Below are positions 3,720-50,464 of a stretch of 64,000 bases of DNA, piece after piece. The stretch's first letter is position 1; each line of letters starts with the position of its first letter. The DNA lies in the NCBI GenBank assembly GCA_963522765.1, contig CAUQZM010000001.1, positions 18,329 to 82,328 on the forward strand. Direction: 5' to 3'. Source of the DNA: an uncultured Campylobacter sp. (lineage in GTDB: Bacteria > Campylobacterota > Campylobacteria > Campylobacterales > Campylobacteraceae). Under the pieces are notes generated by a model. That model was not told where the DNA came from and did no database searches. It saw only the letters and a program-made list of their open reading frames with translations. The position numbers and the translations under genes were made by a program.

Positions 3720-3727
3720 AACCGCCC

Positions 3728-15828: not shown

Positions 15829-15839
15829 AATTCAAAATT

Positions 15840-16225: not shown

Positions 16226-16229
16226 ATTG

Positions 16230-17186: not shown

Positions 17187-17196
17187 CTTCTTTCCT

Positions 17197-17742: not shown

Positions 17743-17842
17743 CGATCTTCCTTTGAAATTTTAGGCGCATTTTAACGAATTTTGCTTTTTAAAAGGCTAA
17801 ATTCGCTACAATCTGCTCATCTTTAAAAGCCGGATTTTAAAA

Positions 17843-18331: not shown

Positions 18332-18340
18332 AGGAATAAA

Positions 18341-19398: not shown

Positions 19399-19399
19399 A

Positions 19400-27998: not shown

Positions 27999-28074
27999 GT
28001 CTCGTTAGCTCAGTTGGTAGAGCATCTGACTCTTAATCAGGCGGCCGTAGGTTCGAATCCTACACGGGACACCA
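27999..28074 (+). tRNA. tRNA-Lys (anticodon CTT)
   Basis: 76 nt. Acceptor gtctcgt pairs with acgggac (one G-U pair). D-arm agctcagttggtagagc. Anticodon stem-loop tctga-ctCTTaa-tcagg. T-arm gtagg-ttcgaat-cctac. Encoded CCA. Closely parallels E. coli tRNA-Lys. Confidence 0.92.
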
Positions 28075-28465
28075 ATAATCCTTTACAATTATAGAATTCT
28101 AATCGGTGCTTTTTAATTAATACGCTAAATTTACAATTACGATGCTTTTGTAAATGCAAATTGGGACCACTCGATAGTAATAAATGACTTTTTCGATAAT
28201 GTATCCAAGCGATAGAGTTCGATGCATAGATGAAATTTAATAGTCATAGTCAAAAAGTAAAAAACAATTCTAGCTTTGATACTGTAATAGCTAAATGTCA
28301 TTCTTACTCTTTAGTAAAATAGTATTGCTAATTTAACGTCAATATTATTTTACTAGAGTTTGCACAACATAATATTCCATATAAAGCGCCGCAGTAGGGA
28401 GTTTTATCAAAGCAGCCTTTACATTCAGCCGTAACACCCCAATATAGAAATAAATTATTTAAAAT

Positions 28466-29395
28466 TTATCTATTTTCGGAATTGCAGGTTTTAAATTTAT
28501 CATAAACCAATACTACAAAGGTAGAAAGCATAAGTCCTATTATTGCAGATATTGCTAAAATGATTAGTTTTTTAGGCTTTGCTGGGCGATCAGATAAAAC
28601 TATATTAGAAATTATATGAGAAGTTTTAAAATTAAAATCAGAAAGCCTACTTTCTATAATGCTCTTTTTCTTCATTAAATCAGGAATTTGTATTAGAGTT
28701 ATAGCGCTCATTTCATCGCTTATTTTAGGTATATTGTCGTTTAAAATTTTGTCTTTTATATTCATTAACTCCATCAGTTTTAATTCGCCAGCATCGCTAA
28801 GCTTTTCTTTCTTGTTCAGCATGTCTATTTGATCATCTATTTTGGCTATCTGAATACCTTTTAAATATTCTATGCGTTCTTTTAAAATACGAATTTTATC
28901 ATTTTTTAAATAACTTATCTGTGAATCAATACTTACCGATTGTTCACGTACAGCCTTTTTATATTCATCTAAAACTATAGCATCTTCTTTGCTTAAATCT
29001 GCCACCATCTCATCTATCTGTTTTTTTAGTAATTCGTTTGATTTGGCAAACGCCGTTATAATAAATATATTGGCGCTATCTTTATCGGCGACGATACTAT
29101 CAACCGTTACGTTCTTGTCCTTAATATCCTTTAGTCCATCAATATATTTTACTCTAAGCTCATGCATCCGAACGGATCTTTCGGTTATATACTGTGGCAT
29201 ACCAGTTTCATTATTATAATAGGCGGTTTCTATCATCGCCGTTGCTTTATACCACGGAGTAGCAAATAGAATGTACAAAAGCCCAATCGCAATAAATCCG
29301 CAAGTTACTATACAAATTTGCTTTTTATATTTCCATATCTTTTTTGCCAAATCTAGCAGATCAATCTCATCATCTTCACAATAATTCTGTTGCAT
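28466..29395 (-). CDS. wzz: Polysaccharide co-polymerase / chain-length determinant (Wzz family)
   Basis: N-terminal DDEIDLLDLAKKIWKYKK plus a TM helix, a long coiled-coil middle, and a C-terminal PAKPKKLIILAISAIIGLMLS TM helix. Confidence 0.75.
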   Translation of the reverse strand: MQQNYCEDDEIDLLDLAKKIWKYKKQICIVTCGFIAIGLLYILFATPWYKATAMIETAYYNNETGMPQYITERSVRMHELRVKYIDGLKDIKDKNVTVDSIVADKDSANIFIITAFAKSNELLKKQIDEMVADLSKEDAIVLDEYKKAVREQSVSIDSQISYLKNDKIRILKERIEYLKGIQIAKIDDQIDMLNKKEKLSDAGELKLMELMNIKDKILNDNIPKISDEMSAITLIQIPDLMKKKSIIESRLSDFNFKTSHIISNIVLSDRPAKPKKLIILAISAIIGLMLSTFVVLVYDKFKTCNSENR

Positions 29396-29417
29396 ATTTC
29401 TTCTCCAAATTTAAAAT

Positions 29418-30749
29418 TTAAATTGCGCCCTCGCGAACAAGGACCACCTTAAAGGTTTTTATGATTATCACGATATCGTTCCATATCGACCAGTTTTTCA
29501 TATACCACGTATCCATGCCCGCCCTGGTCGCAAAATCCACGTCGCTGCGCCCGCTCACCTGCCAAAGCCCCGTAATACCGGGCTTAACGGCTAGGATTAG
29601 ATCGGCGTATTCGCCCATATCCTTGCGCTCGTATTGCGCGCACGGGCGAGGACCTACGATGCTCATTTCGCCCTTTAGGACGTTGATCAGCTGCGGAAGC
29701 TCATCGAGCGAGCTTTTGCGTAAAAAATCGCCCAGCTTCGTGATGCGCGGATCGTGCTCGTATTTGTGATATTTTTCAAAATACTCCACCTCTTGCGGAT
29801 TTTGCTTAAGATACTGCGCTAAAATTTCATCGCCGTCTTCTTTCATCGAGCGAAATTTCAGACATCCAAACGGCTTGCCGCCGAATCCCATCCTTTGGTG
29901 CGAAAAAAATATGCGTCCCGTGGGCTCTTTTAGCTTCATCATCAGCGCGATTATACCAAAAATCGGCACCAGCAGAGGAAGCGCTAAGAAAATTAGCGCT
30001 AAATCAAGCCCGCGTTTAAGAGCTAAATTTAAAGGGCTTTTCAGAGAATTTCGTATCGCAAAGAGGCTGGTGCGCGAGGCAAAAACGCTGTAAATATCTG
30101 CCTGCGTAAAATCGTATGAGCGCAGCACGGGGGTAAATAAAATTTCTTTGTTCTTTCTGATATTATGTTCGATAAGCTCGTTCAAGGCTTTCGCACCAAG
30201 CCTACTTCCGCCGATAAATAATACGTCGTAATCGCTTCCAAGAGCTCTAACATATCCTAAATACGCGCTTTCTAAGACGGCGCTCTCAAACTCCTCGCCC
30301 TCGCCTAAAATTTTCGCCCTCTTTCGCCATAGGCCAAATTTAAAAAGACTCCTTTTCGTTATGAGTTTAAAAAGAGGCAAAATCACCGCCATAAAGGCAA
30401 AGCTCAAAATAAAGCTGGCACGTGAAAATTCGTAATTGACTTTGATTAAAGCAAGTAGCGCAAGGCTTAGTAAAAGCCCCAAGAAGCAGCTTTTTACTAA
30501 AATTCTACTCTCATGCCAAAAATCATATCGCCTCGAATAGATCCCCTGATAGAAAAATAGAAATATCATTATGACGTAGGACGGCGCAAAGCCCTGATAC
30601 CTGCCGATATCCAGCAGTACGCTATCGCCGTAGAGCAGATTTTTAAGCACCACGGCAAGCCCGAAGCAAAGCCAGATACCGAAAATATCGACCGCCAAGA
30701 TTATCAAAACGCAGAGTTGCTTTTTCATCCTAGCTCCTATTAAAATCAT
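29418..30749 (-). CDS. Undecaprenyl-phosphate sugar phosphotransferase (initiating transferase, WbaP/bacterial sugar transferase family)
   Basis: N-terminal multi-TM region. C-terminal catalytic domain with KFRSM and DELPQLINVLKGEMSIVGPRP. Confidence 0.85.
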   Translation of the reverse strand: MILIGARMKKQLCVLIILAVDIFGIWLCFGLAVVLKNLLYGDSVLLDIGRYQGFAPSYVIMIFLFFYQGIYSRRYDFWHESRILVKSCFLGLLLSLALLALIKVNYEFSRASFILSFAFMAVILPLFKLITKRSLFKFGLWRKRAKILGEGEEFESAVLESAYLGYVRALGSDYDVLFIGGSRLGAKALNELIEHNIRKNKEILFTPVLRSYDFTQADIYSVFASRTSLFAIRNSLKSPLNLALKRGLDLALIFLALPLLVPIFGIIALMMKLKEPTGRIFFSHQRMGFGGKPFGCLKFRSMKEDGDEILAQYLKQNPQEVEYFEKYHKYEHDPRITKLGDFLRKSSLDELPQLINVLKGEMSIVGPRPCAQYERKDMGEYADLILAVKPGITGLWQVSGRSDVDFATRAGMDTWYMKNWSIWNDIVIIIKTFKVVLVREGAI

Positions 30750-32094
30750 CTTGCAGGCGCACGATATCGTCCTCGCCGGTATAGCTGCCGACTTGAGCTT
30801 CGATTAGCACGACGGGGATTTTACCCTCATTTGCGAGGCGATGGACCTCACCCATCCTAATGAACGTAGATTCATTCTCGCGCAGCAAGAAATTTCGCTC
30901 GCCCACAGTCACGGTCGCGGTGCCGCTAACGACGATCCAATGCTCGTTGCGATGGTAGTGCTTCTGCAGCGATAGCCGCTTGCCGGGCTTAACGACTATA
31001 CGCTTGATCTTGTAGCCGTGCTCATCTTCAAGCACCGTGTAGCTGCCCCACGGGCGGTGCGTCGTTACGTGCACGCGCGCTAGATCGCTATCTCCGAGCC
31101 GCTCCACTACCTGCTTTACCTTTTGGGTAGAGCCTTTTTTACATATGAGCAGGGCGTCTTTGGTATCGACGATAGCGAGATCCTCGATGTCTATGGCGGC
31201 TATCGTGCGGCCCGAGCCGATGATGAGATTGTTTTTAGAATTTAGAGCGATATTTTGCTCGCTTGCGGTGTTGCCGTTCGCGTCTTTAGGTAGCTCGGCG
31301 TCTAAGCTATCGAAGCTTCCCAGATCGCTCCAGCCGATGTCTGCGGGTACGACCTTAGCAAGGCTCGTGTGCTCCATAACTGCGTAATCGATGCTATCTG
31401 CGGGGATCTCTTGCATATCGTCTAGTTTAATTCTAAGCGGATTTTCTGCGTTAGAATTTTCGTACGCACGGACGCAGGCTTCGTAAATTTCAGGGCTCTG
31501 CGCCTTTAGCTCGCTCAAAAATACGCCAGCTTTAAACATAAACATGCCGCTGTTCCAATAAAAATTCCCCGCCGCTATGTAGCTTTGCGCTGCCGCAAGC
31601 TCAGGCTTTTCGTGAAATTTTAACACGTCCTCGCCGCTTGCTTCGATATAGCCGTAGCCCGTATTTGCATCCGCAGGCCTGATACCAAACGTCACCAAAA
31701 ACCCCTGCTTTGCAAGCTCGTGCGCGCGCAAGACGCTGTTTTTATACGCCGCTTCGTCTTTAATTAGATGATCGCTCGGCGTTACGAAAACGATCTCCTC
31801 GGCCTTTAGGCTCAAACATGCAAGCGCGATCGCAGGAGCCGTATTTCTGCCAACGGGCTCGAGCAAAAATTTTACACCGCGCGCTCCTAGGACCTCAAGC
31901 TGATCAAGCGCCAAAAAATACTGCTGCTCGTTCGAGACGACGAGCGTGCGCTCGCATAGCGGAGAGTTTCGCTCGTAGCTCATCATAAAAAGCGAGCGGT
32001 CGTCAAAGAGGCGCACGAACTGCTTTGGCATAAGCGTACGGCTGATGGGCCACAGCCTCGTGCCGCTGCCGCCGCTTAGGATTATATTAGTCAT
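30730..32094 (-). CDS. manC: Mannose-1-phosphate guanylyltransferase / mannose-6-phosphate isomerase
   Basis: ILSGGSGTRLWPISR nucleotidyltransferase motif and a C-terminal cupin (RPWGSY, HRNEHWIVVSGTA). Confidence 0.88.
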   Translation of the reverse strand: MTNIILSGGSGTRLWPISRTLMPKQFVRLFDDRSLFMMSYERNSPLCERTLVVSNEQQYFLALDQLEVLGARGVKFLLEPVGRNTAPAIALACLSLKAEEIVFVTPSDHLIKDEAAYKNSVLRAHELAKQGFLVTFGIRPADANTGYGYIEASGEDVLKFHEKPELAAAQSYIAAGNFYWNSGMFMFKAGVFLSELKAQSPEIYEACVRAYENSNAENPLRIKLDDMQEIPADSIDYAVMEHTSLAKVVPADIGWSDLGSFDSLDAELPKDANGNTASEQNIALNSKNNLIIGSGRTIAAIDIEDLAIVDTKDALLICKKGSTQKVKQVVERLGDSDLARVHVTTHRPWGSYTVLEDEHGYKIKRIVVKPGKRLSLQKHYHRNEHWIVVSGTATVTVGERNFLLRENESTFIRMGEVHRLANEGKIPVVLIEAQVGSYTGEDDIVRLQDDFNRS

Positions 32095-33211
32095 TTAGGC
32101 CGTCCTTAAATTCCTCATATTTTTTCTCGACGTAGCTTTTGATCTCGACTTCAAAGCGTGCGCGCGAAAATTTTAAAGAATTTTCTCTGATTTTTACAGG
32201 CTCAAATTTATCATAATTTTGCTCAAATTTAGCTACGGCGGCGAGCAGCTCCTTTGTATTTTGCTCCATAAAATACAGTCCGCTCTCGCCGTCAAGCACC
32301 GTCTCGCGAGCGCCGCCGCGCCCAAAGCAGATCACCGGCGTGCCGCATGCCTGCGCTTCTACCGGCGTAATGCCGAAGTCCTCTTCGGCGGCAAAAACAA
32401 ACGCCTTAGCCCGCCCCATGAGATCCGCCATCGTTTCATCGCTCGCAAAGCCCAAAAGCTCGACATTTTTGCCTGCTTTTGATTTTATTTTGGCCATATC
32501 GGGTCCGTCGCCAATGACTAGCAGCTTTTTATCCGTCTGCGAAAACGCCTCGACGATAAGATCGATCTTTTTGTACGGAACCATACGCGAGGCAGTGAGA
32601 TAGAACTCCTCTTTAGCTTCGCGCAGCGTAAATTTATCTACATCCACGGGCGGATAGATGACGTCGCTAGGCTTGCCGTATGTTTTTTTGATACGGCGCG
32701 CGATGTAGCGGCTGTTTGCGACGTAGTGATCCACGCGGTTTGCGGTGCTCGCGTCCCAAAGCCGAATTTTATGTAAAAAATACTTCGCCAGCATGCCCTT
32801 TAAACCGCGATCTAGCCCGCTTTCGCGCAAGTACTGATGATACAGATCCCACGCGTAGCGGATCGGCGTGTGTACATAAGCGATGTGAAGCTGATTTGAG
32901 TGCGTCAGCACCCCCTTTGCTACGGCATGCGAGCTGGATAGCACGACATCATAGCCGCTTAGATCAAACTGCTCGATCGCGAGCGGAAATAGCGGCAGGT
33001 AGTTGCGGTATTTATCCTTTGCAAAGGGTAGCTTCTGGATAAAGCTCGTATGGGCGCGCTTGCCCTTTAAAATTTTATCTCGGTCGGCATCGCTTAAAAA
33101 GTCGATGAGGCTGTAAATTTCAAAATCATCCCAGATATCGGTAAAACTCTCAACGCATTTCTCCGCGCCCGCATAGGTACTAAACCAGTCGTGAATAAGG
33201 GCTTTTTTCAT
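32087..33211 (-). CDS. Glycosyltransferase, GT4 family
   Basis: GT-B C-terminal signature EDFGITPVEAQACGTPVI. Host-like GC. Confidence 0.8.
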   Translation of the reverse strand: MKKALIHDWFSTYAGAEKCVESFTDIWDDFEIYSLIDFLSDADRDKILKGKRAHTSFIQKLPFAKDKYRNYLPLFPLAIEQFDLSGYDVVLSSSHAVAKGVLTHSNQLHIAYVHTPIRYAWDLYHQYLRESGLDRGLKGMLAKYFLHKIRLWDASTANRVDHYVANSRYIARRIKKTYGKPSDVIYPPVDVDKFTLREAKEEFYLTASRMVPYKKIDLIVEAFSQTDKKLLVIGDGPDMAKIKSKAGKNVELLGFASDETMADLMGRAKAFVFAAEEDFGITPVEAQACGTPVICFGRGGARETVLDGESGLYFMEQNTKELLAAVAKFEQNYDKFEPVKIRENSLKFSRARFEVEIKSYVEKKYEEFKDGLND

Positions 33212-34311
33212 TGCAGCTTCCTAGTTGATCTATTTTCAAATATTTGCTCGTAAATTTTTTCCACTTTACGAACCGCGATGCCTATATCAAATTTATCTTT
33301 AAAATTTAGCAATGCTTCGGCTTGCATTTTACCGTATATTTTCTCATCATTTAATAAAATTTCTATCTCCCGGCACGCCTTCTGTGCACTCTCAAACAAG
33401 AACCCGTTTTTGTCGTTTTCTACGACTTCGTTATTTCCCACGACGTTTGTCGCCACTATCGGGATACCGAGCGACTGAGCCTCCATAAGCGCATAAGGCA
33501 GCCCCTCCCATCTGGACGTAGACAGATAGATGTCCGTAGCGGATAGATACGCGGGCACTTCGTCTGTAAAGCCCGTAAAGATTATATTTGCGCCGTCTTT
33601 TTGCGCCATAGATTCAAATTTCGCCCTATCATCGCCGTCTCCGAGCCACAAAAAAACGATGTCTGGGTTGTCTTTAAAATTTTGAGCTATCTCGTACGCC
33701 AAAGACATATTTTTCGCATAATCAAATCTTGAAATAGTCGTAACTACCCTTTTCCCTGATAAATTAAATTTTATCTTGGCATTATCGTCTTTTAAAAGAG
33801 CTTTTATACCGTTATATACGATCTCGCTCTTGCCTTTTTTAAATAGCCCAAGCTTTAAACAAACGCTATTTTCACTATTTGAGACATTTATAAATTTATC
33901 GGTAAATAACGTTAAAAATCGCTCCAAAAAAACATATGCGCTCTTTTTTAAAAAGCCGTATTCTCCGATATGAACGCCGTGTAAAGTGTGAACTATCTTT
34001 AGCCTTGGATTTAAAATTTTAAGCATCCGCGAATAGATGCCCGCACCTTTGCCATGAGAATGAACTATCTCTATATCGTTATCTTTTATAAATTTATTCA
34101 GCCCAAGGAGTTTTTTTACACTAAATTTTCTGTGCGGCAGGGCAAATATATCTTTAACCTTTTTTGACTCGCTCCACATATTATAATAGGGCTTATCTTT
34201 CGGACAAGCAAGATATATCTCTATCCCGCTAGATAAATTATTTATAAGTAGATCAACGTGTTTTGGACCGCCGCCGTGATCGGCCCTAAGCGTTATAAAT
34301 AAAATTTTCAT
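33208..34311 (-). CDS. Glycosyltransferase, GT4 family
   Basis: SRWEGLPYALMEAQSLGIPIVATNVVGNNE (E-x7-E region). ATGA overlap with the neighbouring gene. Confidence 0.8.
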   Translation of the reverse strand: MKILFITLRADHGGGPKHVDLLINNLSSGIEIYLACPKDKPYYNMWSESKKVKDIFALPHRKFSVKKLLGLNKFIKDNDIEIVHSHGKGAGIYSRMLKILNPRLKIVHTLHGVHIGEYGFLKKSAYVFLERFLTLFTDKFINVSNSENSVCLKLGLFKKGKSEIVYNGIKALLKDDNAKIKFNLSGKRVVTTISRFDYAKNMSLAYEIAQNFKDNPDIVFLWLGDGDDRAKFESMAQKDGANIIFTGFTDEVPAYLSATDIYLSTSRWEGLPYALMEAQSLGIPIVATNVVGNNEVVENDKNGFLFESAQKACREIEILLNDEKIYGKMQAEALLNFKDKFDIGIAVRKVEKIYEQIFENRSTRKLQ

Positions 34312-35384
34312 TTGTCATAATCCTTCAGTATAAATGATATATATATATATAGAATAAGCTCATGCAAAGCATTGACAAATAGACAAGAAGCTAATAAAGA
34401 TATAAAGGCAATAAATAAATTATGATTTGTCAATATAGCTTTTCTTAAAATATAAATTATAAAAGCACAAAACAAAATATAACCAATAACACCGAATTCA
34501 GAAAATACTTGTAGAAAAAGATTGTGTTGTTCTAATATCAAATTCATACGCTCTAAAGCATTTAAATGCAATAAGTACTCTGAATCAAGAATTAAATTTT
34601 TGCCATTAAAATATCCTATACCAAAACCATAATTATCAAAACCCATATTAGCATATGCAACATGTAACTGATACCTAAGAGACGAAAAATCATCTATTAA
34701 AATTTTATTATCTATATCCAAAATGCGGTCCACTCCAAGTATCAAAAAAGGATATAGAAATATAAATAAAATATATAGACATCCAAAATAAACACTTACT
34801 CGTTTGTTTATCTTCGAGATTATAGACAAAAATATAAATAAGAATAAGGATATTATAAAGCTCCTATTAGCAGTAAAAATTATAGATAAAAAAGATATGG
34901 CAGAATAGTAGTATACTTTTTTTGTTGCGAATAAAAGACCAATTCCGGTAAGCAATAATGCAGTAAAATTAAATTCTCCAATAACCCCCCTGTATCGTGG
35001 CAAATAAAAACCAAAAAAATCTCTATAGCCAGCATTATTGCCCATGTATACTTCTAAGATAAAAACAAGTATAATAAATATAAGCATTATTTTTAATATT
35101 AAAAATATATCATACTTTTTTAATACCTTGATTAAATACATAGAGAAAAATAAAATTAAAGTAAGTTGCAGTAGCCTAAAAATCGATGATATCCGGGCAG
35201 TATATACACATACTACAACATTGCATATTATCATAATAAAAATTGGAATATAGCATGCATATATCTTTTTATACTTAAATATGTAAATAAATCCAAAAAT
35301 GGGAGCCAAAGCATTAAAATATAATGGTAGACTAAATGGTTGTTTTAATATAAAAAAAGGTAAAAGTCTATAAAGTAACTTCAT
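34308..35384 (-). CDS. wzy: O-antigen polymerase (Wzy) or ligase-like multi-pass membrane protein
   Basis: About 10 hydrophobic spans, very low GC, and its position among glycosyltransferases. Wzy and WaaL cannot be told apart by eye. Confidence 0.6.
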   Translation of the reverse strand: MKLLYRLLPFFILKQPFSLPLYFNALAPIFGFIYIFKYKKIYACYIPIFIMIICNVVVCVYTARISSIFRLLQLTLILFFSMYLIKVLKKYDIFLILKIMLIFIILVFILEVYMGNNAGYRDFFGFYLPRYRGVIGEFNFTALLLTGIGLLFATKKVYYYSAISFLSIIFTANRSFIISLFLFIFLSIISKINKRVSVYFGCLYILFIFLYPFLILGVDRILDIDNKILIDDFSSLRYQLHVAYANMGFDNYGFGIGYFNGKNLILDSEYLLHLNALERMNLILEQHNLFLQVFSEFGVIGYILFCAFIIYILRKAILTNHNLFIAFISLLASCLFVNALHELILYIYISFILKDYDK

Positions 35385-36511
35385 AAATCTTTAAGCAAGG
35401 TGCTTAGCTTGCCATTCCATGTAACATGTTCTAGATGAAACCTCTGCCTAGCTTCTCTACTTTCAATACAATTCAGAAAGCTATCGCTATTACATGCAAA
35501 ATACACATAATCACTCATATCTTTAATCTGCTCCCACTCCACGCTAACAACTTTTAATCCGCAAGCTAGATACTCATACATCTTTAGCGGATTTATACTA
35601 TTTACTAAATCAGGATAATCCTTAACATTAAAAGGAATTATGCCCACCTGCGAATTATATAAAAACGCAGGAATTTTAGCGTATGGAATAGAGCCTAAAA
35701 TATGGATATTTTTTAACTTTTTGAGTAAAGATAGATCTTTTTGCTCCGGACCTATTATAATAAAACTAAAATTTGGCAAATTTTTAGCGCAGTAATACAC
35801 TAAATCCACATCAAACCAATCATGTATTGCGCCTACGTAAATTACCCTAGGCTCAGGAATATCTTCAAGCTCCTGCGGCAAAGACCTGTCTGCCGTTTTA
35901 AAAAAATCGAGATCAATGCCATTTGGCACATATTTCATTTTAGATTTATCTTTTATTTGATCGTATTTTTCTTTTAAATTTTTTGCCGTATAAATGACAG
36001 CATCTACTTTATTTGCGATATTTATCTCGGCGTTAAACTGCGCATCAGAAACCGCATTAAAGCCTTTTGAATAATCGGCTATCCTTAAAATCGATTTTTT
36101 ATAAGTTATAGTATCCAGCAAAAAACCAAACAATGGGCTATCAAACCACAATATATCAACCTCGCCAAAACCCCGCTCTCTTATAAAATTTAATAAATTT
36201 GGATACGTAAAATTTTGCCAATTATTTAAAACAAAATTTGACGATAAAATCGGCTTATTTTGAGGCGTAAAAAAGGAGTGCGGAACATAATAAAAAATAC
36301 CGCCTGCGCCCTCGCCTCCTTTTTTATAAATTCTTTCCCGCTCTTTTAATTCGTTACTATTTGCAAAAATTTTATGTATCGGCGAGATAGGATTTGAGAT
36401 AAAAAGCACCTCATATCCTAGCTTTTCAAACGCCCTGGCATAATGATGGCTACCGACCTGAAACGGCGAAGTATAGTAATTCGCAACGGCCATTAAAACT
36501 TTTTTAGACAT
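35381..36511 (-). CDS. Glycosyltransferase (GT-B fold, GT4-like)
   Basis: 376 aa. C-terminal IIPFN...NPLKMYEYLACGLKVV pattern. Operon context. Confidence 0.65.
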   Translation of the reverse strand: MSKKVLMAVANYYTSPFQVGSHHYARAFEKLGYEVLFISNPISPIHKIFANSNELKERERIYKKGGEGAGGIFYYVPHSFFTPQNKPILSSNFVLNNWQNFTYPNLLNFIRERGFGEVDILWFDSPLFGFLLDTITYKKSILRIADYSKGFNAVSDAQFNAEINIANKVDAVIYTAKNLKEKYDQIKDKSKMKYVPNGIDLDFFKTADRSLPQELEDIPEPRVIYVGAIHDWFDVDLVYYCAKNLPNFSFIIIGPEQKDLSLLKKLKNIHILGSIPYAKIPAFLYNSQVGIIPFNVKDYPDLVNSINPLKMYEYLACGLKVVSVEWEQIKDMSDYVYFACNSDSFLNCIESREARQRFHLEHVTWNGKLSTLLKDL

Positions 36512-40760: not shown

Positions 40761-40773
40761 TCAAATCAACCAA

Positions 40774-42781: not shown

Positions 42782-43982
42782 AGTAAATCTTTGTATATAA
42801 AAATAGCGAATACAAATTTGATATCATACTTGACATACAGGCTCCAATCGCGCCCATTATCGGAACTAATAAAATACTAGATAAAGCAGTCATAATCGTC
42901 ATTTTTATATTAGCCTTTTTTAGCTCTTTCCCATATCCATGCCCATTAATCCAAGCATTATATGGTTGATAAAGGGCTTGGAAACAAACCGCGATAGACA
43001 TCAAAAGCAGCAAGAAAGAAACATCACTGTATTCTTCTTTTAGATAAAAATTTATAATTAAATACCCCAGTATATTAGCTAAAACAAACGCTAGAAATAC
43101 CCAAACTAAATTTGCCTTTAAAACGGCAGTGGGTATTTTGCTGCTATTTGCTAGCATTTTAAACATAGTACTACTCATCGCATTTGATAGCGAATTTATC
43201 GGGGTGGCCATAGAATTTGCCAGCCCATAAAAGCCAACATCCTTTGCACCCATAAAATACCCTATTAAAAGCCTGTCTATATTGTATGTCGAAACGTCAA
43301 TTACTCTACCTACATACACATGTATACCGTAGCGTTTGTTTTCTAAATTTATAATTCCAAAGATCTCAGAAAAATCACTAAAATTTGGTCGTAATATACA
43401 CCCATATATCACAAATGCAAGCGCATAAGACAATGAAAACGACAAAAGAGCATTTAGTGGAGTTAAGCCTTCAAAAATAAACAAAATGAATAAAAATACT
43501 ACAAATAAAATTTTAGAAAATATATTAAAACCAGCTAAATAACCTATGTGATTACTACCTTTTAATATTAGTTCCATAAAAAATGGAATTGTAAAACTCC
43601 AACTAACAAAGGATGAAATTCTAATGATATGACCTATCTTGTCATCAAAAATGATATCTAGTAGAAAAGAAATAGCTAACGAAAATAGTAAAAATAATAC
43701 AAATATAACACAGACTATAATTATCGATGCTCCAAATATCTTTTTTTCCAAATTTATATCATGATTTTTCGCCAGCATTTTTGAAGCGCTAGAAAAATAT
43801 CCGAACTCAAAAAATATGGAAATAAATATGATGATAGCTAAGGCCAAAGAATATATCCCAAAATCAACCGCTCCCATCTGTTTTGCCAAAAGCATATTAG
43901 ATACAAAGCCCACAACCATACCAAATATCTGTGCTACAAAAAGGAAGGTCGTTTGATAAAATACTTTATTTTTTGCTATCAA
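42768..43982 (-). CDS. wzx: Oligosaccharide flippase (Wzx / MOP superfamily)
   Basis: 404 aa with about 12 hydrophobic spans, and a typical N-terminus (VAQIFGMVVGFVSNMLLAKQMGAVDFG). Confidence 0.7.
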   Translation of the reverse strand: MIAKNKVFYQTTFLFVAQIFGMVVGFVSNMLLAKQMGAVDFGIYSLALAIIIFISIFFEFGYFSSASKMLAKNHDINLEKKIFGASIIIVCVIFVLFLLFSLAISFLLDIIFDDKIGHIIRISSFVSWSFTIPFFMELILKGSNHIGYLAGFNIFSKILFVVFLFILFIFEGLTPLNALLSFSLSYALAFVIYGCILRPNFSDFSEIFGIINLENKRYGIHVYVGRVIDVSTYNIDRLLIGYFMGAKDVGFYGLANSMATPINSLSNAMSSTMFKMLANSSKIPTAVLKANLVWVFLAFVLANILGYLIINFYLKEEYSDVSFLLLLMSIAVCFQALYQPYNAWINGHGYGKELKKANIKMTIMTALSSILLVPIMGAIGACMSSMISNLYSLFLYTKIYYAKI

Positions 43983-45816
43983 AATTTATCTCCAGCCATT
44001 TTTCTAAAGCAAATAATATCCACATCTTATATCCCTGATTTTTATATTTAGTGTGGATATCTAATAGCTTCTGCAAGAAAATTTTAGATATAAATTCATG
44101 TATCATAGCTTTTTTAAGCAATAATTCCTTTTGATACCATATAGGCATAATATTTTGCAAAAAAGGTGTTAAGAGCATACCGAAACCGACTTTTGGCCGA
44201 TTTAAAATATAGCTAGGAAGCTTATTTTTTGCTATTTCTTTTAAAATACTCTTGGCGCCATATTTCATCTTTGTATCGAACGATAGGCTAGAACTGTATT
44301 CAATAAGAAAATGATCCATAAACGGACTCCTTGCTTCTACGCTTTGGGACATCGTGGAATAGTCTATCTTCTGCAAGATAAGCTCGGGGAGTCGCATTTT
44401 ATATTCAACATTAAGAATTTTTCTTAAAAAACTATCAGGCAAATCATCTCTTATTTCAGACATATAATTATGTAGAATTCTATATGAATTAAAAGACTTA
44501 TCGCTCAACCAAAAACTTCTTTTTTCAAATTCGGTAAAGCCGTGTATGTGGCGCCTAGAAATAATGTCATTATTATAGAAAATATCAAACTTTCTAGCAA
44601 ATTTCTCTGGCAGGCTTTTAAACATAAAATTTAAATTCTTAAAATGCTTCAAAATATTATATTCTTTATTTAATTTTTCATATATAGGATAACCGCCCAT
44701 TTCATCGCCACCCTCGCCAACGATCATAACTTTAAGACTATTGCTTTTGCTAAGCTTTGATAGGAAATACAGCAAAGCGGAATTTACATCCCCGGTAGGG
44801 CTATCTATTTGTTTAGTCATATATTCTTTCGCTAACTCTTCAAAATCGTTGGAAGAAATAACGCTTTTAATAAATTTTACACCAAGTTCTTTTGAAAATT
44901 TTTGTGCTATTTCTGATTCGTCATATATATCATCCGCATCATAACTTATGTTAATTGCATCTATCTTTCCGGCCTCTTTACTTGAATAAAATAAATTTAA
45001 AGAGCTATCTATACCGCCGCTAAGCGCTATAGCTATATCGACGTCTGCTATATTTCTATATTTCATTGATTTTACAAGCAGATCTTCAGTTTTTTCGGTA
45101 GCCTGCAAAAAATTATCCGCGTTATCTACATTAATAAAATCCGCAATATTCCAATACTTTACTTTTTCTATTTTATTCTTTGTAATTTTTAAATAATGAC
45201 CGCATTCTAATTTATAAATATTAGCGAAAAAAGTATCAGGAGCATTGGTTGTTAAAAATGTCAGATAATTATATATCGCCTCCTCATTAATACGCTTCTC
45301 AACTACGCTTGCCTTAAAAAATGCATGAATTTCTGAAGAAAAATATAGAGCATTATTACTCATAGTAAAAAACAACGGCTTTTTACCCATTCTGTCTCTA
45401 ATAAGAATAGTTTCCATTTTTACTTTATCGTATAGGGCAATAGCAAAAAAACCGTTAAAATATTTTATGCATTCTAGTCCCCACTCTTTATAGGCATATA
45501 GAATAGTTTCGGTGTCAGAGTGATCCGTTTTAAAACTATATTTTGATTTTAATTTCTCTCTAATCTCTAAATGGTTATAAATTTCACCGTTAAAAATCAA
45601 AACTAAAGTATTTTCATCATCAACCATCGGCTGATCAGCTGTAGTAGATAGATCTAGTATAGACAGCCTTCTGTGTCCAAACACAACATTCTCATCAGAG
45701 TAAAAACCTTCGCTATCGGGCCCTCTATGTATTATTGCGCTTGACATATTTTTTATATCATCAATATCTTTCTGCGTTATTCCTTTATAAGAGACCTTAC
45801 CGACTATTCCACACAT
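43966..45816 (-). CDS. Asparagine synthase (glutamine-hydrolysing)-like amidotransferase
   Basis: N-terminal nucleophile MCGIVG and the PP-loop ALSGGIDSS. 616 aa. Confidence 0.85.
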   Translation of the reverse strand: MCGIVGKVSYKGITQKDIDDIKNMSSAIIHRGPDSEGFYSDENVVFGHRRLSILDLSTTADQPMVDDENTLVLIFNGEIYNHLEIREKLKSKYSFKTDHSDTETILYAYKEWGLECIKYFNGFFAIALYDKVKMETILIRDRMGKKPLFFTMSNNALYFSSEIHAFFKASVVEKRINEEAIYNYLTFLTTNAPDTFFANIYKLECGHYLKITKNKIEKVKYWNIADFINVDNADNFLQATEKTEDLLVKSMKYRNIADVDIAIALSGGIDSSLNLFYSSKEAGKIDAINISYDADDIYDESEIAQKFSKELGVKFIKSVISSNDFEELAKEYMTKQIDSPTGDVNSALLYFLSKLSKSNSLKVMIVGEGGDEMGGYPIYEKLNKEYNILKHFKNLNFMFKSLPEKFARKFDIFYNNDIISRRHIHGFTEFEKRSFWLSDKSFNSYRILHNYMSEIRDDLPDSFLRKILNVEYKMRLPELILQKIDYSTMSQSVEARSPFMDHFLIEYSSSLSFDTKMKYGAKSILKEIAKNKLPSYILNRPKVGFGMLLTPFLQNIMPIWYQKELLLKKAMIHEFISKIFLQKLLDIHTKYKNQGYKMWILFALEKWLEINFDSKK

Positions 45817-45831
45817 TATTTTGATCCGAAT

Positions 45832-47961
45832 TTACAATATAAAGCTTATCTCCGTCGTCTGCACCATATCCCAAAGCTCTATCGGCCAGCTTTTTTTGCT
45901 TCCTTTTAGAGCCCCAAATAGCGCCTCAAGCTCTTCGAGCTGCCCCTTTTGGCTTACGTTCGTTGAAATTTCTTTCACCCCAATTCCGTATCCTTTAAGA
46001 CTTTTATAGTCATCTAAAACGATGCTCTTGCCGTCAAAGTGAATCTCCATAAATTCCTTACTTAGCTCCTTGCTGCCGTTTGCGAAATACTCGATATTTG
46101 CTACCGAGCCGTCTTTGTATTTTAAGACGATGGATTTGTTATCCTCGGCGCTATATTTTTCATTACTCGGCGTGATCGCCTGCGAAAATACGCTCTGTAT
46201 CTCGCTGCCCGTCAGCGCCGTCATTAGATCTATTATGTGGCACGCTTCGCCCACCATTCTGCCGCCGTTTTCGTGCACCCAGTGATCCATCGGTATGTAA
46301 CCCGCGTTCATTCTATATCTAATTATCATCGGATTTATTCTAGCGCTCGTGTGCTTTTTTATCTCCTGTGCATAGGCGCTAAATCGCCTGTTAAATCCCA
46401 CGAATAAAAGGGGCTTGTCGCCTCCACCTTCGTAAAATTTCTTTATCTTTTCAAGCTCCTCTTTGTTTGTCGCAAGCGGCTTTTCTACAAATACGTTTTT
46501 GCCCGCTTCAAGCGCCTTTAAAGTAAGCTCCGCATGGCTATCGTGCCTTGTGGATATTATCACAAGATCGACGTTTTTGTCATTTAAAACATCGTCTAAA
46601 TTTGAAGTAGCGTAGTTCGCTCCGTATTGCTGCGCCACGGCCTTTGCTTTATGTCCGCTCCGGTTCATGATCGCGTAAATTTTATACTTGTCCGTAAGCT
46701 TTGAGATATTAGGCAGGTGCATACCGGTAGCAAATCCACCAACGCCTACGAATGCGACGTTTATCACATCTCTGTTTACGGGTATAGAATTTATAATGAT
46801 TTTTTTATCGTGATTTAGATAGTTATCAAGCTCGGTCAAATTTGCCTCGCCGTAGTCGAGCAAAACCATAAGCGGCTTATTCTGCGATGTTTGCAGCGAC
46901 TCAAACGCCTCCGTTACCTGCTCGATAGGGTATTTTGCGTCTATGAGCTTATCCAGCTTTATCAAATTTTCATTTACCAGCCTTAGATACTCGCTCATAT
47001 TTCGATTTTCGGTCCATCTGACGTAGCTAAACGGATAATCAAGCCCCCCCTCTTCGTAGCTCTTGTCGTAGCGACCAGGACCATAAGAGGTGGAGATGAG
47101 AAAATCGAGCTCCTTTTTATACATATCCTCTCTATTGATCTGCATGCCGGCAACGCCTACGAGCACCACTCTGCCCTTTTTCTTACACATCTGAAAACTT
47201 TGCGATAGCGGCTCGCTACTGCTCGTAGCGGCGGTAAATAGCACTCCATCGGCGCCGTATCCGCCGCTCCAGGATGAAACGACATCCAGCAAATCGTCTT
47301 TTGACGGGTTTATGACGAGCTCGGCGCCATATTCCTTTGCTATCTGTAAGCGCCTATCGTCAAAATCGCTGACCGCAACCCTTACGCCTGAAATTTTAAG
47401 CATCTGTACCGCAAGAAGCCCCAAAATCCCAGCTCCCACCACTACGCAGGTCTCACCCAGCCTTAGATCGATCCGCCTAACGCCCTGCATCGCTATGCCG
47501 CCTAGCGTCACGGTGCAAGCCCGCTCAAAGTCCATATCCTGCGGCATTTTCATAACTAAATTTTTTGGCACGTCTACGTATTCTGCATGGTTCGCAAGCC
47601 CTGCACCGGCTGCAGCGACGTGCTCACCGATTTCAAAATTTGAAACGCCCTCTCCGACTGCTATGACGACGCCGCTAAGCGAATAGCCGGTCGGACTTCC
47701 GCTATCAAGCTTGCCCTTTACCTTCGCATAGACGCTAGCTATTCCGTCGGATTTCACCATATTGATGACTTTTTTTACGTTCTCCGGCTGCTCCAAGGCT
47801 CTTCTAATTAAGCTCTTTCCGCTATTTGATACGCCGCTTATCTCGGTGCCCGCTGATATGCAGCTATTTACTACTTTTATAAGAACGCATCCCCTTGAAA
47901 CGCTCGGAGCAGGCATCTGCTCTGCTAAAACTTTACCTTTTTTAACTATTGCTTGTATCAT
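45832..47961 (-). CDS. Bi-domain oxidoreductase: N-terminal MDR/zinc-ADH-like domain fused to a C-terminal Gfo/Idh/MocA domain
   Basis: The N-half has the Rossmann motif VVGAGILGLLAVQ after an ADH-like GroES domain. The C-half has VAFVGVGGFATGMHLPN and EKPLA, typical of Gfo/Idh/MocA. Confidence 0.75.
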   Translation of the reverse strand: MIQAIVKKGKVLAEQMPAPSVSRGCVLIKVVNSCISAGTEISGVSNSGKSLIRRALEQPENVKKVINMVKSDGIASVYAKVKGKLDSGSPTGYSLSGVVIAVGEGVSNFEIGEHVAAAGAGLANHAEYVDVPKNLVMKMPQDMDFERACTVTLGGIAMQGVRRIDLRLGETCVVVGAGILGLLAVQMLKISGVRVAVSDFDDRRLQIAKEYGAELVINPSKDDLLDVVSSWSGGYGADGVLFTAATSSSEPLSQSFQMCKKKGRVVLVGVAGMQINREDMYKKELDFLISTSYGPGRYDKSYEEGGLDYPFSYVRWTENRNMSEYLRLVNENLIKLDKLIDAKYPIEQVTEAFESLQTSQNKPLMVLLDYGEANLTELDNYLNHDKKIIINSIPVNRDVINVAFVGVGGFATGMHLPNISKLTDKYKIYAIMNRSGHKAKAVAQQYGANYATSNLDDVLNDKNVDLVIISTRHDSHAELTLKALEAGKNVFVEKPLATNKEELEKIKKFYEGGGDKPLLFVGFNRRFSAYAQEIKKHTSARINPMIIRYRMNAGYIPMDHWVHENGGRMVGEACHIIDLMTALTGSEIQSVFSQAITPSNEKYSAEDNKSIVLKYKDGSVANIEYFANGSKELSKEFMEIHFDGKSIVLDDYKSLKGYGIGVKEISTNVSQKGQLEELEALFGALKGSKKSWPIELWDMVQTTEISFIL

Positions 47962-47981
47962 TAACTATACCTTGAAAAATA

Positions 47982-49181
47982 TTAAATATTAGTATTTCGC
48001 ACGCCGCAAAAATCCAAAATTTCTTTTTCTATTTTCAGCCCCTTAAATTCCTTATGTCCGACTAAAAATACGATAATGTCTGAAATTTCAATAGCCTTTT
48101 TATAATCCACTATCTCAAAATCCTTGTGAGCCTTGATATTGGGCTCTACGGCGACCACATCGACGCCGTCTGCGATCAGGCGTCTGGTTATATTTAGCGC
48201 AGGCGACTCCCGCAAATCGTCGATGTCGGGCTTAAAAGTAAGCCCCATGCACGCGACTTTGGGCTTTCTGCCGTTTTGCAGCTCAAATTTCAAAGCGGCG
48301 TTTTTGATTTTTTCAATACACCACTCAGCTTTGTGATCATTGACCTCTCTTGCGGATTTGATCAGCCTTGCTTCGTAGCCGCCCGCATGCACTATAAACC
48401 ACGGATCGACCGCTATGCAGTGCCCGCCTACGCCGCAGCCCGGGTTTAAAATATTAACTCGCGGATGGCGATTTGCTAGAGAAATGAGCTCCCAAACGTT
48501 AATGCCGAATTTATCGCACAAAATGCTAAGCTCGTTTGCAAAGGCTATGTTTACGTCGCGAAAGGAATTTTCGGTCAGTTTCGACATCTCTGCGGTTTTT
48601 GAGTCGGTCTGCAAAACTTCGCCTTCTACGAATTCTTCGTAAAATTCCGCCGTTTTTTCTGCAGCTTCTCTGTTTAGACCGCCCACGATCCTATCGTTTT
48701 GCGTGAGCTCTTTTAAAATTTTACCCGGCAAAACCCTCTCCGGGCAATGAGCGATATAAATTTTAGAAATATCAACACCGCCATTTTTTAAAATTTCACC
48801 TATCTTTTCGGTAGTACCTACCGGTGAAGTGGATTCTAAAACGACCATATTATCGTCTTTTACGTATGGTATTATAGATTTTGCCGCACTTATGACATAA
48901 TCGATATTTGGCACGTATCCGTCTCGAAACGGCGTCGGAACAGCTATGATAAAAACGTCTGCGAAATCAGGCTTAACGTCTGCTTTTAAATTTCCGCTCT
49001 GCACTGCTTTTTTAACAAATCCATCTAGTTCCGGCTCGACGATATGAATTTTACCATCATTAATCGTATCTACGACGCTCTGCACCACATCAACGCCATG
49101 GATTTTATAGCCCCTATTTGCCAAAAGCGCCGCCGTAGGCAGCCCTATGTACCCAAGACCTAAGATGCAAACTTTTTTCAT
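47982..49181 (-). CDS. wecC: UDP-N-acetyl-D-mannosamine dehydrogenase (UDP-glucose/GDP-mannose dehydrogenase family)
   Basis: MKKVCILGLGYIGLPTAALLA and the catalytic region GVGGHCI. Confidence 0.85.
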   Translation of the reverse strand: MKKVCILGLGYIGLPTAALLANRGYKIHGVDVVQSVVDTINDGKIHIVEPELDGFVKKAVQSGNLKADVKPDFADVFIIAVPTPFRDGYVPNIDYVISAAKSIIPYVKDDNMVVLESTSPVGTTEKIGEILKNGGVDISKIYIAHCPERVLPGKILKELTQNDRIVGGLNREAAEKTAEFYEEFVEGEVLQTDSKTAEMSKLTENSFRDVNIAFANELSILCDKFGINVWELISLANRHPRVNILNPGCGVGGHCIAVDPWFIVHAGGYEARLIKSAREVNDHKAEWCIEKIKNAALKFELQNGRKPKVACMGLTFKPDIDDLRESPALNITRRLIADGVDVVAVEPNIKAHKDFEIVDYKKAIEISDIIVFLVGHKEFKGLKIEKEILDFCGVRNTNI

Positions 49182-50314
49182 AATATTCCTTTTAAAAATT
49201 CCAGTATTTTTTTACAAGCTTTACCGTCGCCATACGGACTTGTACTTTTACTCATTTTATCATATTCATCTTTTAAATTTAATAATTTTTGCACCTCTTT
49301 TATGATATTTTCGCGCTTGGTGCCGATAAGCTTAACGCATCCTGCCCTTATCCCTTCGGGTCTTTCGGTAGTTTCTCTGATAACTAAAACAGGCTTGCAA
49401 AGGCTCGGCGCCTCCTCCTGGATGCCACCACTATCGGTTACTATCATATATGACTTGCTCATAAGATAGACAAAACTATCATACTCTAGCGGATCGATTA
49501 AAAATATATTCGAAATGCCCGATAAAATTTCTCCCACAGGCTTTCTTACATTTGGATTTAGATGCACGGGATAAACGATGTCGATATTTTCATTTTTTAG
49601 TGCTATTTCACGTAAAGCCTCACAAATATTAACAAAGCCTTCTCCGAAATTCTCTCGTCTGTGTCCTGTAACAAGAATAAATTTTCTATCACTAAGCTTA
49701 TATTTGGAATTTATAAAAGATAAAATTTTATTTTTTAGCAGCTTGTTGTTTTCGATTTTATCTATCGTCCACAAAAGTGCGTCTATAACGGTGTTGCCGC
49801 TAACGATTATATTTCTTGAATCTTTGCCTTCTTTTAATAGATTGTCTCTTGCATCGATGGTCGGCGCAAAGTGATATTTAGCTATGAGCCCTGTCATCTG
49901 CCTATTTATCTCTTCAGGAAACGGCGAATAGATATCATGCGTCCTAAGTCCAGCTTCGACGTGAGCAACATCTATCTTTTGATAATACGCCGCCAAAGAA
50001 ACGGCATAAGTAGTAGTCGTATCTCCATGCACAAACACGATGTCTGGAGTATATTCTCTAAATACATCGCGCATACCAAGCAAAACGCCTGACGTAATAT
50101 CGTACAGATCCTGCCCTTGCTTCATTAAATTTAGATCGAAATCGGGCTTTATCTCAAAAAATTCAAGCACCTGATCGAGCATCTGTCTGTGCTGCGCCGT
50201 AACGCAAACCTTCACTTTAAATTCTGCATGCTTTTGAAATTCCTTTATCAACAAAGCCATCTTAATGGCTTCCGGGCGCGTTCCAAATACTATTAAAATT
50301 TTTCTTTTCGTCAT
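49178..50314 (-). CDS. wecB: UDP-N-acetylglucosamine 2-epimerase (non-hydrolysing)
   Basis: ILIVFGTRPEAIKM, HVEAGLRT and DSGGIQEEAPSL. First gene of the operon. Confidence 0.9.
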   Translation of the reverse strand: MTKRKILIVFGTRPEAIKMALLIKEFQKHAEFKVKVCVTAQHRQMLDQVLEFFEIKPDFDLNLMKQGQDLYDITSGVLLGMRDVFREYTPDIVFVHGDTTTTYAVSLAAYYQKIDVAHVEAGLRTHDIYSPFPEEINRQMTGLIAKYHFAPTIDARDNLLKEGKDSRNIIVSGNTVIDALLWTIDKIENNKLLKNKILSFINSKYKLSDRKFILVTGHRRENFGEGFVNICEALREIALKNENIDIVYPVHLNPNVRKPVGEILSGISNIFLIDPLEYDSFVYLMSKSYMIVTDSGGIQEEAPSLCKPVLVIRETTERPEGIRAGCVKLIGTKRENIIKEVQKLLNLKDEYDKMSKSTSPYGDGKACKKILEFLKGIL

Positions 50315-50464
50315 AAACTCCCCTAAATATCGGTTTTTTAACCGAATTTATTGCTGTAATTTTAATTAAATTTTGCTATATCGGCGCTTAACAATACATA
50401 AAATCACCTATTTGTCGTTACTTGGATGGTATAAATATTCTTCGCTTTCAAAGATGGCTAAGAT

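Follow-up and report, generated by a model that had tools for sequence, protein, structure and literature searches.

Which surface glycan is specified by the operon of seventeen genes beside a tRNA-Lys gene in an uncultured Campylobacter, and how is the operon exchanged among relatives? The question is raised by a 64 kb stretch of metagenome-derived DNA (the window, to which all positions refer unless a contig is named), in which an earlier note had read a Wzx/Wzy/Wzz-dependent heteropolysaccharide operon. Here we describe the interval 28075-50505 of the window in comparison with related genomes. Our analysis indicates that it is very probably a strain-variable Wzx/Wzy-dependent surface-polysaccharide locus of the Campylobacter gracilis complex.

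Organization and boundaries of the locus

A six-frame listing of open reading frames (ORFs) shows 17 consecutive minus-strand ORFs running from position 50314 down to 28466, from wecB to wzz. Neighbouring genes overlap, by 1-20 nt, at 12 of the 16 junctions; gaps of 13-22 nt separate them at the other four. Genes were named by Pfam and NCBIfam profile searches against curated cutoffs, and all functions given below are accordingly profile-based. The ORF listing and both profile collections agree with the gene number, strand, overlaps and order given in the earlier note, and its pathway assignment is supported by profile matches to Wzx, Wzy_C and Wzz.

The left edge of the variable interval is the 3′ end of the tRNA-Lys(CTT) gene (27999-28074, plus strand; ARAGORN, Rfam 72.8 bits). 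This gene is convergent with the operon and lies 391 bp from the wzz stop codon, close to the 0.4 kb estimated previously. Homology of the left flank in approximately 20 related contigs is 92-95% at the nucleotide level up to 28056-28084 and then breaks. The right edge (50315-50505) consists of the intergenic region together with the final 40 nt of the HhH-GPD gene; where relatives carry a different cassette, their blastn homology picks up again at 50499-50505. Both flanks are made of housekeeping genes: secDF, leuS, lptE, an M23 peptidase gene, mfd, a DUF815 gene and the HhH-GPD gene on one side, and a Ysc84-like gene, an M23 peptidase gene, ogt, fbp, gltX, priA and psd on the tRNA side. Promoter and terminator scans at both operon ends detected nothing above shuffled expectation, and Rfam and tandem-repeat scans found nothing relevant within the locus.

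Variation of the locus among relatives

By its protein and DNA matches, the host is assigned to the metagenome-assembled Campylobacter of the C. gracilis complex. Its WecC belongs to a 90%-identity cluster that contains the C. gracilis RM3268/ATCC 33236 protein (AKT92185.1). In addition, when the C-terminal half of Mfd was searched against GTDB, each species represented by one genome, approximately 20 metagenome-assembled genomes (MAGs) named "uncultured Campylobacter sp." were detected, with Mfd identities of 98-99% (protein) and ~94-95% (DNA); Mfd of C. showae was only 73% identical. All close relatives carry this title, in line with the earlier designation of the host as Campylobacter-like. 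The GC content of the window backbone (0.45-0.55) also fits the C. gracilis group, since the type-strain genome has 46.55% GC (PMC4574385). The relatives compared here (designated by L numbers) are metagenome or MAG contigs at ~93-95% nucleotide identity, most of which span only one side of the locus. Exact copies of the 358-aa Wzy candidate and of two left-flank proteins were found only in the source scaffold, which spans 353 kb (ENA ERZ28634650).

While the housekeeping flanks are 92-95% identical in ~45 related contigs, the locus between them is a mosaic. Conserved parts include wecB-wecC-oxidoreductase, the heparinase-like gene and a glycosyltransferase family 4 (GT4)-manC-phosphotransferase module; swapped parts are low-GC genes for Wzx, Wzy, Wzz, glycosyltransferases and sugar modification. 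Inside the locus, homology breaks off at the borders between genes (29430-29443, 33211-33215, 34313, 36514, 45848-45851 and 47962/48004). At least five distinct arrangements were observed on each side of the locus, plus one complete alternative cassette in L091.

On the HhH-GPD side, mfd-DUF815-HhH-GPD is retained in all relatives (~94-95% nucleotide identity), and homology either ends at ~50505 or runs on into the locus, depending on the relative. Eight contigs continue with wecB; among these, L006 is collinear through wzx and the DegT-like gene, and L018 through wzx. The segment between wecC and the oxidoreductase gene accepts insertions, namely an Acyl_transf_3 gene in L008, L013 and L018, and a GT2-methyltransferase-GtrA-unknown gene set in L010 and L020. 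Downstream (3′) of the oxidoreductase gene, the Wzx of L008 differs from that of the window and is accompanied by a canonical DegT; L013 encodes an unknown protein of 453 aa and a glycosyltransferase there. Four other contigs (L002, L011, L014 and L016) have one to three genes for ~685-aa proteins directly after HhH-GPD, followed by GtrA, GT2, nucleotidyltransferase, 4,6-dehydratase and thiamine pyrophosphate enzyme genes. Two of the ~685-aa proteins, in L011 (13284-17379; the L014 counterpart is at 13530-19906), match the PMT_2 family of GT-C glycosyltransferases, and the set of ~685-aa/PMT_2, GtrA and GT2 proteins looks like a periplasmic glycan-modification module. CDP-sugar genes are also represented in the alternative gene sets.

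On the tRNA side, 33 contigs were obtained when metagenomes were scanned with the Ysc84-like protein of the flank. Two of them (L086 and L103) follow the window cassette to the contig end, L085 follows it to 34313 and L099 to 33215. Homology of L099, L095, L114 and L108 ends at 33211-33215, the edge of the glycosyltransferase gene GT4c. In L087, L095, L108 and L114, only the phosphotransferase-manC-GT4c block is kept (29430-33215; 94-98% protein identity), with different genes next to the tRNA and a different centre; wzz is replaced or absent in these four contigs, and the 408-aa Wzz of L114 is 32% identical to that of the window. In L091, the entire interval occupies ~9 kb and consists of wzz-GT2-GT4-EpsG-Wzx-wecB-HhH-GPD.

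Two other arrangements were seen at these flanks. In L084 (8469-11360), tRNA-Lys is followed by genes for a class-I aldolase-like protein and HtpG and by no polysaccharide genes, which suggests a rearrangement or a location of the locus elsewhere in that lineage. In the C. showae-like species, what follows mfd-DUF815-HhH-GPD is not a polysaccharide locus but a set of cysK/cysE-like, RNase T and rpe genes, and a CLC chloride-channel gene that is absent from the lineage of the window lies between DUF815 and HhH-GPD (L023, 13075-14301).

Base composition follows conservation. Core genes of the window have a GC content of 0.45-0.55 and a GC content at third codon positions (GC3) of 0.51-0.64. Six locus genes are at or just below these values, with GC of 0.44-0.53 and GC3 of 0.46-0.63: manC (GC3 0.63), GT4c (0.58), the phosphotransferase gene (0.53), the oxidoreductase gene (0.53), the heparinase-like gene (0.49) and wecC (0.46). 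Ten or eleven genes are of low GC (0.25-0.38; GC3 0.20-0.40), with the lowest GC3 in wzy (0.20), followed by the FemAB-like gene (0.22), wzz (0.27), wzx and asnB (both 0.28), the DegT-like gene (0.30) and the GumK_N glycosyltransferase gene (0.32). Variable genes thus occupy a GC3 range of 0.20-0.32 and conserved modules 0.46-0.63. The previous statement that most of the locus is much lower in GC than its surroundings therefore holds for the ten or eleven genes and not for the other six.

Breakpoints at gene boundaries combined with conserved blocks of host-like GC mark this interval, as judged from sequence comparison, as a classic recombination-diversified polysaccharide locus. The earlier note had anticipated cassette replacement between tRNA-Lys and the HhH-GPD gene, and this is what the breaks at 28074 and ~50505, with alternative gene sets between them, reveal. 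It had also named an invariant locus with host-like codon usage as evidence to the contrary; we found cassettes that differ. Diversification would proceed by homologous recombination in the housekeeping flanks and in the internal conserved modules, by which low-GC blocks would be swapped with no site-specific integration.

Proposed assembly of the polymer and alternative readings

The predicted O-unit flippase Wzx (42768-43982) belongs to the MOP superfamily (PF01943, E 1.5e-24, 87.4 bits against a cutoff of 28.2) and is polytopic, with at least 9 hydrophobic segments. The putative O-unit polymerase Wzy (34308-35384) is a 358-aa protein that matches Wzy_C (PF04932, E 3.1e-10, 40.4 bits against a cutoff of 31.7), with ~9 hydrophobic segments and a ~75-aa loop bearing an HN-x9-G-x2-G motif. 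The predicted chain-length regulator Wzz (28466-29395) has 309 aa and matches PF02706 (E 4.3e-12, 46.6 bits against 25.5) and the GNVR domain PF13807 (E 2.8e-8); its hydrophobic segments are found only at the ends (27-45 and ~272-300) and a kinase domain is absent, which fits PCP-1. In the proposed pathway, Wzx would flip the repeat unit, the 358-aa protein would polymerize it and Wzz would set the chain length. A WaaL encoded elsewhere would then ligate the polymer to lipid A-core, generating an O-antigen; this is the weakest step of the scheme.

Several points weigh against this interpretation. First, no WaaL that could attach the polymer to lipopolysaccharide is encoded in the window; a second Wzy_C protein was detected neither in the 64 kb nor in the 10 kb past each end. 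Second, several genes resemble exopolysaccharide (EPS) or teichuronic-acid families (PEP-CTERM and TuaB/TuaH) below the family cutoffs. Third, the GNVR domain matched by Wzz is typical of Wzc-type co-polymerases. Fourth, the HN-x9-G-x2-G motif is common to WaaL, PglL and some Wzy proteins and hence does not discriminate between them. Finally, relatives at ~93-95% nucleotide identity represent a species complex and not strains of one clone.

The first three of these points also suit a different product, a capsule or secreted EPS that is not ligated to lipid A-core and is made by a group-1/4-like or EPS-type Wzy pathway. In addition, the score of the initiating phosphotransferase in the EPS_sugtrans model TIGR03025 exceeds the cutoff (313.5 against 295.6 bits), and the Vibrio cholerae polysaccharide VPS, an EPS, likewise begins from WecB/WecC-type genes (PMC3901696). 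However, Pfam calls for the locus and ~72 kb around it included no Wza-type exporter (Poly_export), no Wzc or other bacterial tyrosine kinase (BY-kinase), no Wzb and no kps genes. Moreover, the co-polymerase is short, with two transmembrane ends like PCP-1 Wzz, and relatives carry GtrA/GtrB/GT-C-type modification modules, which are typical of O-antigen loci. Given the absence of Wza, Wzc kinase and kps genes from ~72 kb and the short Wzz with two transmembrane segments, we favour attachment to lipid A-core as an O-antigen, which we consider moderately likely; a capsule or EPS appears rather improbable, yet it is the most serious competitor.

A second alternative concerns the 358-aa protein, which might be a ligase or oligosaccharyltransferase of the WaaL or PglL type that transfers single units to lipooligosaccharide (LOS) or proteins, with no polymer being formed. 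PF04932 spans WaaL, PglL and Wzy, and RefSeq labels fragments of this protein "O-antigen ligase family protein"; with the HN-x9-G-x2-G motif shared among the three groups, the protein's own sequence leaves its role undecided, and it had no match among PDB sequences. The comparative evidence favours Wzy over WaaL, albeit short of proof. The 358-aa protein is rare and cassette-specific, whereas a ligase has to recognize a conserved core: its homologues form only 6 clusters in 5.8 billion proteins, and its 90%-identity cluster has 49 members, compared with 215 for SecF and 363-529 for conserved locus genes. Its gene has the lowest GC content of the locus (0.25) and is situated in the swapped part. 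In other cassettes, an EpsG-family or unrelated membrane protein takes its place, together with a cassette-specific Wzx; the compact L091 cassette, for example, has an EpsG-family polymerase-type protein with its own Wzx and Wzz. The presence of a Wzz chain-length regulator in the operon of the window also argues against a ligase, and we regard this alternative as unlikely.

Disrupted versions of this gene were observed. In L086 (17387-18487), the wzy homologue is broken by a 24-nt insertion with a stop codon, and several RefSeq entries in the wzy 90% cluster are fragments of 181-245 aa; these could be wzy pseudogenes or artefacts of MAG assembly. Phase variation was considered and rejected, as the only homopolymer tract was a G7 in the oxidoreductase gene and the L086 break is the 24-nt insertion.

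That the 22 kb are a horizontally acquired island integrated site-specifically at tRNA-Lys is very hard to sustain: the locus does adjoin the tRNA 3′ end, many of its genes are of low GC, L100 (11344-12612) and L102 (8258-9427) have tyrosine integrases immediately 3′ of the same tRNA-Lys and no polysaccharide locus follows the HhH-GPD gene in the C. showae-like species, but no integrase or transposase is present among the locus ORFs or elsewhere in the window, the 25-nt tRNA 3′ end is single-copy in the window even when 3 mismatches are allowed, with no direct repeat at the boundaries, six genes are at or close to host GC and codon usage, the end modules are 94-98% conserved across the complex with a swapped centre, as is typical of recombination-driven O-antigen loci, and most relatives examined have a polysaccharide locus by at least one of the two flanks. 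With neither an integrase nor an att repeat, the interval behaves as a recombination-replaced polysaccharide locus instead of a mobile island. Thus, the ORF listing and repeat searches bear out the earlier remark that integrase, transposase and att duplication are missing. Its use of the tRNA as a landmark of accessory DNA was misleading here, because there is no integrase and about one third of the locus is host-like and conserved across the complex. Still, the integrases of L100 and L102 imply that the same tRNA-Lys is a real integration hot spot in the complex, though not in the window. In L100, two genes for large repeat proteins of the RTX/HCBP type, of 817 and 868 aa, come after the integrase genes.

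Sugar supply, chain initiation and glycosyltransferases

Three gene products were assigned to sugar-nucleotide supply. The first gene, wecB (49178-50314), encodes a predicted non-hydrolysing UDP-GlcNAc 2-epimerase (TIGR00236, 507 bits against a cutoff of 210) and wecC (47982-49181) a predicted UDP-ManNAc dehydrogenase (NF008286, 532.6 bits against 459). The product of manC (30730-32094), part of a conserved module, is a predicted mannose-6-phosphate isomerase/GDP-mannose pyrophosphorylase (TIGR01479, 531 bits against 373). At the family level, WecB and WecC are predicted to provide the UDP-linked form of N-acetylmannosaminuronic acid (ManNAcA), and ManC GDP-mannose.

Initiation is assigned to a polyprenyl-phosphate hexose-1-phosphate transferase (PGT) of the WbaP/EPS type (29418-30749; PF02397, E 1e-62), which scored 398.7 bits in the WbaP model TIGR03022 (cutoff 403). 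It belongs to the conserved 3′ module and is 94-98% identical in 10 relatives whose central genes differ. Four GT-B glycosyltransferases would extend the chain. GT4c (32087-33211; PF00534, E 1.5e-26) is in the conserved module and is 97-99% identical in relatives. GT4b (33208-34311; PF00534, E 2.9e-30) is 89-93% identical in L085, L086, L087 and L103; L099, L095 and L114 lack it. GT4a (38587-39792) matches PF00534 (E 1.7e-22) and PF13439. The fourth enzyme (35381-36511) has a GumK_N N-terminal domain (PF22059, E 5.5e-9) and is TuaH-like (NF047676, E 4e-23, under the cutoff of that model); it is probably a uronic-acid transferase. Family assignments thus predict that the PGT starts the repeat unit on undecaprenyl phosphate and that these four enzymes extend it. 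The unit would have approximately five sugars, among them mannose and one or more hexosaminuronic acids that originate from ManNAcA.

Enzymes predicted to modify the uronic acid

Six soluble enzymes encoded in the operon would modify the uronic acid. The first is a 709-aa bi-domain oxidoreductase (45832-47961) with an MDR/ADH_zinc_N domain (PF00107) and a Gfo/Idh/MocA domain (PF01408). It belongs to the conserved 5′ module and is 96-98% identical in L006, L008, L010, L013 and L018, 81% in C. mucosalis and 50% in the Negativicute Anaerosinus. The second is an AsnB-type glutamine-dependent amidotransferase (43966-45816; TIGR01536, 390.7 bits against a cutoff of 267) composed of GATase_7 and Asn_synthase domains, whose N-terminus (MCGIVG) includes the catalytic Cys2. 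We infer that it amidates the carboxylate of the uronic acid, yielding a uronamide. In C. mucosalis (L117), Anaerosinus (L118) and the C. gracilis-type contig L122, the slot of this gene is occupied by CapK_C, aminotransferase and HAD genes. Together with the aminotransferase, the CapK-like protein, an adenylating enzyme, and the HAD protein, a phosphatase, resemble the C. jejuni glucuronamide pathway and presumably represent an alternative route to a substituted amide.

Two further proteins, together with the oxidoreductase and a deacetylase-like protein, could remodel amino and acyl groups. One is a divergent DegT/DnrJ/EryC1-like pyridoxal-phosphate enzyme of 352 aa (41723-42781; PF01041, E 1.9e-27), whose match is limited to residues 4-157 and to positions 41-200 of the 360 in the profile; C. 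gracilis-type contigs encode a 94% identical homologue, also of 352 aa. The other is a FemAB/GNAT-like acyl- or aminoacyl-transferase (40774-41742; PF02388, E 1.8e-12; PF13480, E 3e-8).

The deacetylase-like protein (39792-40760) is soluble, has 322 aa and did not itself match any Pfam or NCBIfam model. However, 22 of 35 aligned members of its family match PF01522, which homologues of 41-50% identity carry, and the family profile matches the PDB deacetylase 3rxz (E 0.0017). An AlphaFold model (pLDDT 93.5) compared with Foldseek points to a CE4 (NodB-type) fold, with 3rxz at E 2e-10 and Helicobacter pylori HP0310 and ArnD among the top five matches. ArnD acts on a lipid-linked sugar. The residues D9, H86 and H88, an Asp-His-His metal triad, are invariant in 35 homologues. 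The modelled fold, the occurrence of PF01522 in homologues and the invariant triad together support the label "deacetylase-like" that this protein had received before.

The sixth protein (36504-38594), of 696 aa, has a predicted heparinase II/III fold (PF16889 and PF07940). It matched heparinase III among PDB sequences (5jmd, E 1e-8). Its AlphaFold model was poor (pLDDT 58.7), so that only the superfamily can be read from it, but all Foldseek matches belong to the uronate lyase/epimerase superfamily, namely heparinase III, alginate lyases of family PL17 and dermatan-sulfate epimerase 1. Neither a signal peptide nor a transmembrane or hydrophobic segment was predicted, and more than 2800 homologues were found. 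The protein may act on uronates, as a C5-epimerase or in some other processing step, and could invert C5 as has been proposed for N-acetyl-L-gulosaminuronic acid (L-GulNAcA) in V. cholerae VPS. According to a recent survey, Acinetobacter baumannii capsule loci also encode a protein of heparinase-like type (GnlB), to which no definite role was assigned (bioRxiv 10.64898/2026.07.20.739706).

The oxidoreductase, CE4-like protein, GT4, cytoplasmic heparinase-fold protein and GumK_N glycosyltransferase recur as a block from Campylobacter to Negativicutes, and this block was always found together with a UDP-ManNAc dehydrogenase. It is conceivable, though we would advance it only as speculation, that the block is an uncharacterised pathway for a modified hexosaminuronic acid. 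The lyase-fold protein would then act as an intracellular C5-epimerase, or in a similar manner, on nucleotide- or lipid-linked ManNAcA (for example, to give L-GulNAcA), and the AsnB or CapK/aminotransferase/HAD slot would set the amide cap.

Other features of the window

Outside the locus, three regions of the window were noted. Adjoining an M23 peptidase gene, the minus-strand gene at 24086-26050 encodes a 641-654 aa protein (626-646 aa among relatives) that lacks a Pfam match; its long central part is of low complexity and consists largely of N, S, A, Q and F. In the intergenic region 19417-20491, identity to relatives breaks or falls to 81-85%, and two short tandem arrays are present (39 nt x 2.4 at 20257-20348 and 26 nt x 2.8 at 20420-20491). 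A low-GC patch (0.35) at 3000-5000 within housekeeping DNA contains four small ORFs with no Pfam match.

Significance and comparison with known systems

The locus is of the standard Wzx/Wzy-dependent heteropolysaccharide type, and related versions are already present in public genomes. RefSeq already lists its proteins; PGAP calls one of them a "bi-domain-containing oxidoreductase" and another a "Wzz/FepE/Etk N-terminal domain-containing protein". It is the likely basis of differences in serotype, phage receptors and immune recognition in oral Campylobacter of the C. gracilis group, and the interval from tRNA-Lys to HhH-GPD is a possible typing target for isolates and metagenomes. Wider biochemical interest is confined to the conserved, uncharacterised block predicted to modify uronic acids, with its cytoplasmic heparinase-fold protein.

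Literature searches revealed no paper on O-antigen loci of the Wzy-dependent type in C. gracilis or related species, and the genome announcement of C. gracilis is silent on the locus (PMC4574385). For Arcobacter butzleri, an O-antigen-like hypervariable region was proposed in 2007 (PMC2147049).

Like enterobacterial rfb clusters, the locus combines genes for NDP-sugars, an initiating transferase, glycosyltransferases, Wzx, Wzy and Wzz, and consists of low-GC variable genes in conserved flanks, with cassettes swapped by recombination in the flanks and a very diverse Wzy. The flanks differ: galF and gnd surround rfb, whereas tRNA-Lys and the HhH-GPD glycosylase gene surround this locus, which has PGT and wzz inside the operon. 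The use of WecB/WecC-type genes to feed uronic acids derived from ManNAcA is shared with V. cholerae VPS and Bacillus subtilis tua. VPS contains L-GulNAcA amidated with glycine, thought to be derived from D-ManNAcA by inversion at C5 (PMC3901696). However, TuaB/TuaH-like similarity in the locus is below family cutoffs, and both VPS and tua differ in export and anchoring. The PEP-CTERM/XrtA EPS systems are among the best NCBIfam neighbours of the AsnB-type, FemAB-like, GT4a and PGT proteins; membership in these systems was rejected, as scores fell far short of the curated cutoffs (341 versus 817, 32 versus 260 and 114 versus 442) and an exosortase is absent from the window.

The closest counterparts were detected in two contigs (L122 and L123) with the C. 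gracilis ATCC 33236/RM3268 WecC. Both start with wecB-wecC-oxidoreductase and continue, with other genes between, through wzx-DegT (352 aa)-FemAB-like to the deacetylase-like gene. Identities to the window were 97% for WecB, 94% for WecC, 95% for the oxidoreductase, 94% for the DegT-like protein, 88% for Wzx, 80% for the FemAB-like protein and 78% for the deacetylase-like protein, a comparison that covers the proximal half, as the contigs end before the distal half. They differ in having CapK_C, a class I/II aminotransferase and HAD in place of AsnB, an extra methyltransferase gene and a gene for a 680-aa protein upstream of wecB.

In a cultured species, C. mucosalis (GCA_012978755.1), a near-collinear locus with 60-81% protein identity was found, compared here by gene content and order. 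Its order is wecB-wecC-(acyltransferase)-oxidoreductase, followed after an interval by wzx and, after a second one, by deacetylase-like-GT4-heparinase-like-GumK_N glycosyltransferase-Wzy_C-GT4-GT4-manC-PGT. AsnB, DegT-like and FemAB-like genes are absent, CapK_C, aminotransferase, HAD and methyltransferase genes are present instead, and the Wzy_C protein is unrelated in sequence. The core block is also found in Anaerosinus, at 39-59% identity.

The earlier note had based the novelty of the locus on the contrast with C. jejuni. This was overstated, as the same locus type occurs in the C. gracilis-type contigs and in C. mucosalis. The C. jejuni kps capsule and LOS loci are, like the locus described here, strain-variable mosaic surface-glycan loci with low-GC variable parts. 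In contrast, the C. jejuni capsule relies on an ABC transporter (KpsMT/CSDE) and not on Wzx/Wzy/Wzz, and Pfam searches of the window detected none of kpsM, kpsT, kpsC, kpsS, kpsD and kpsE. Synthesis of a Wzy-type polymer, although absent from the C. jejuni model, thus appears to be normal in this branch of Campylobacter.

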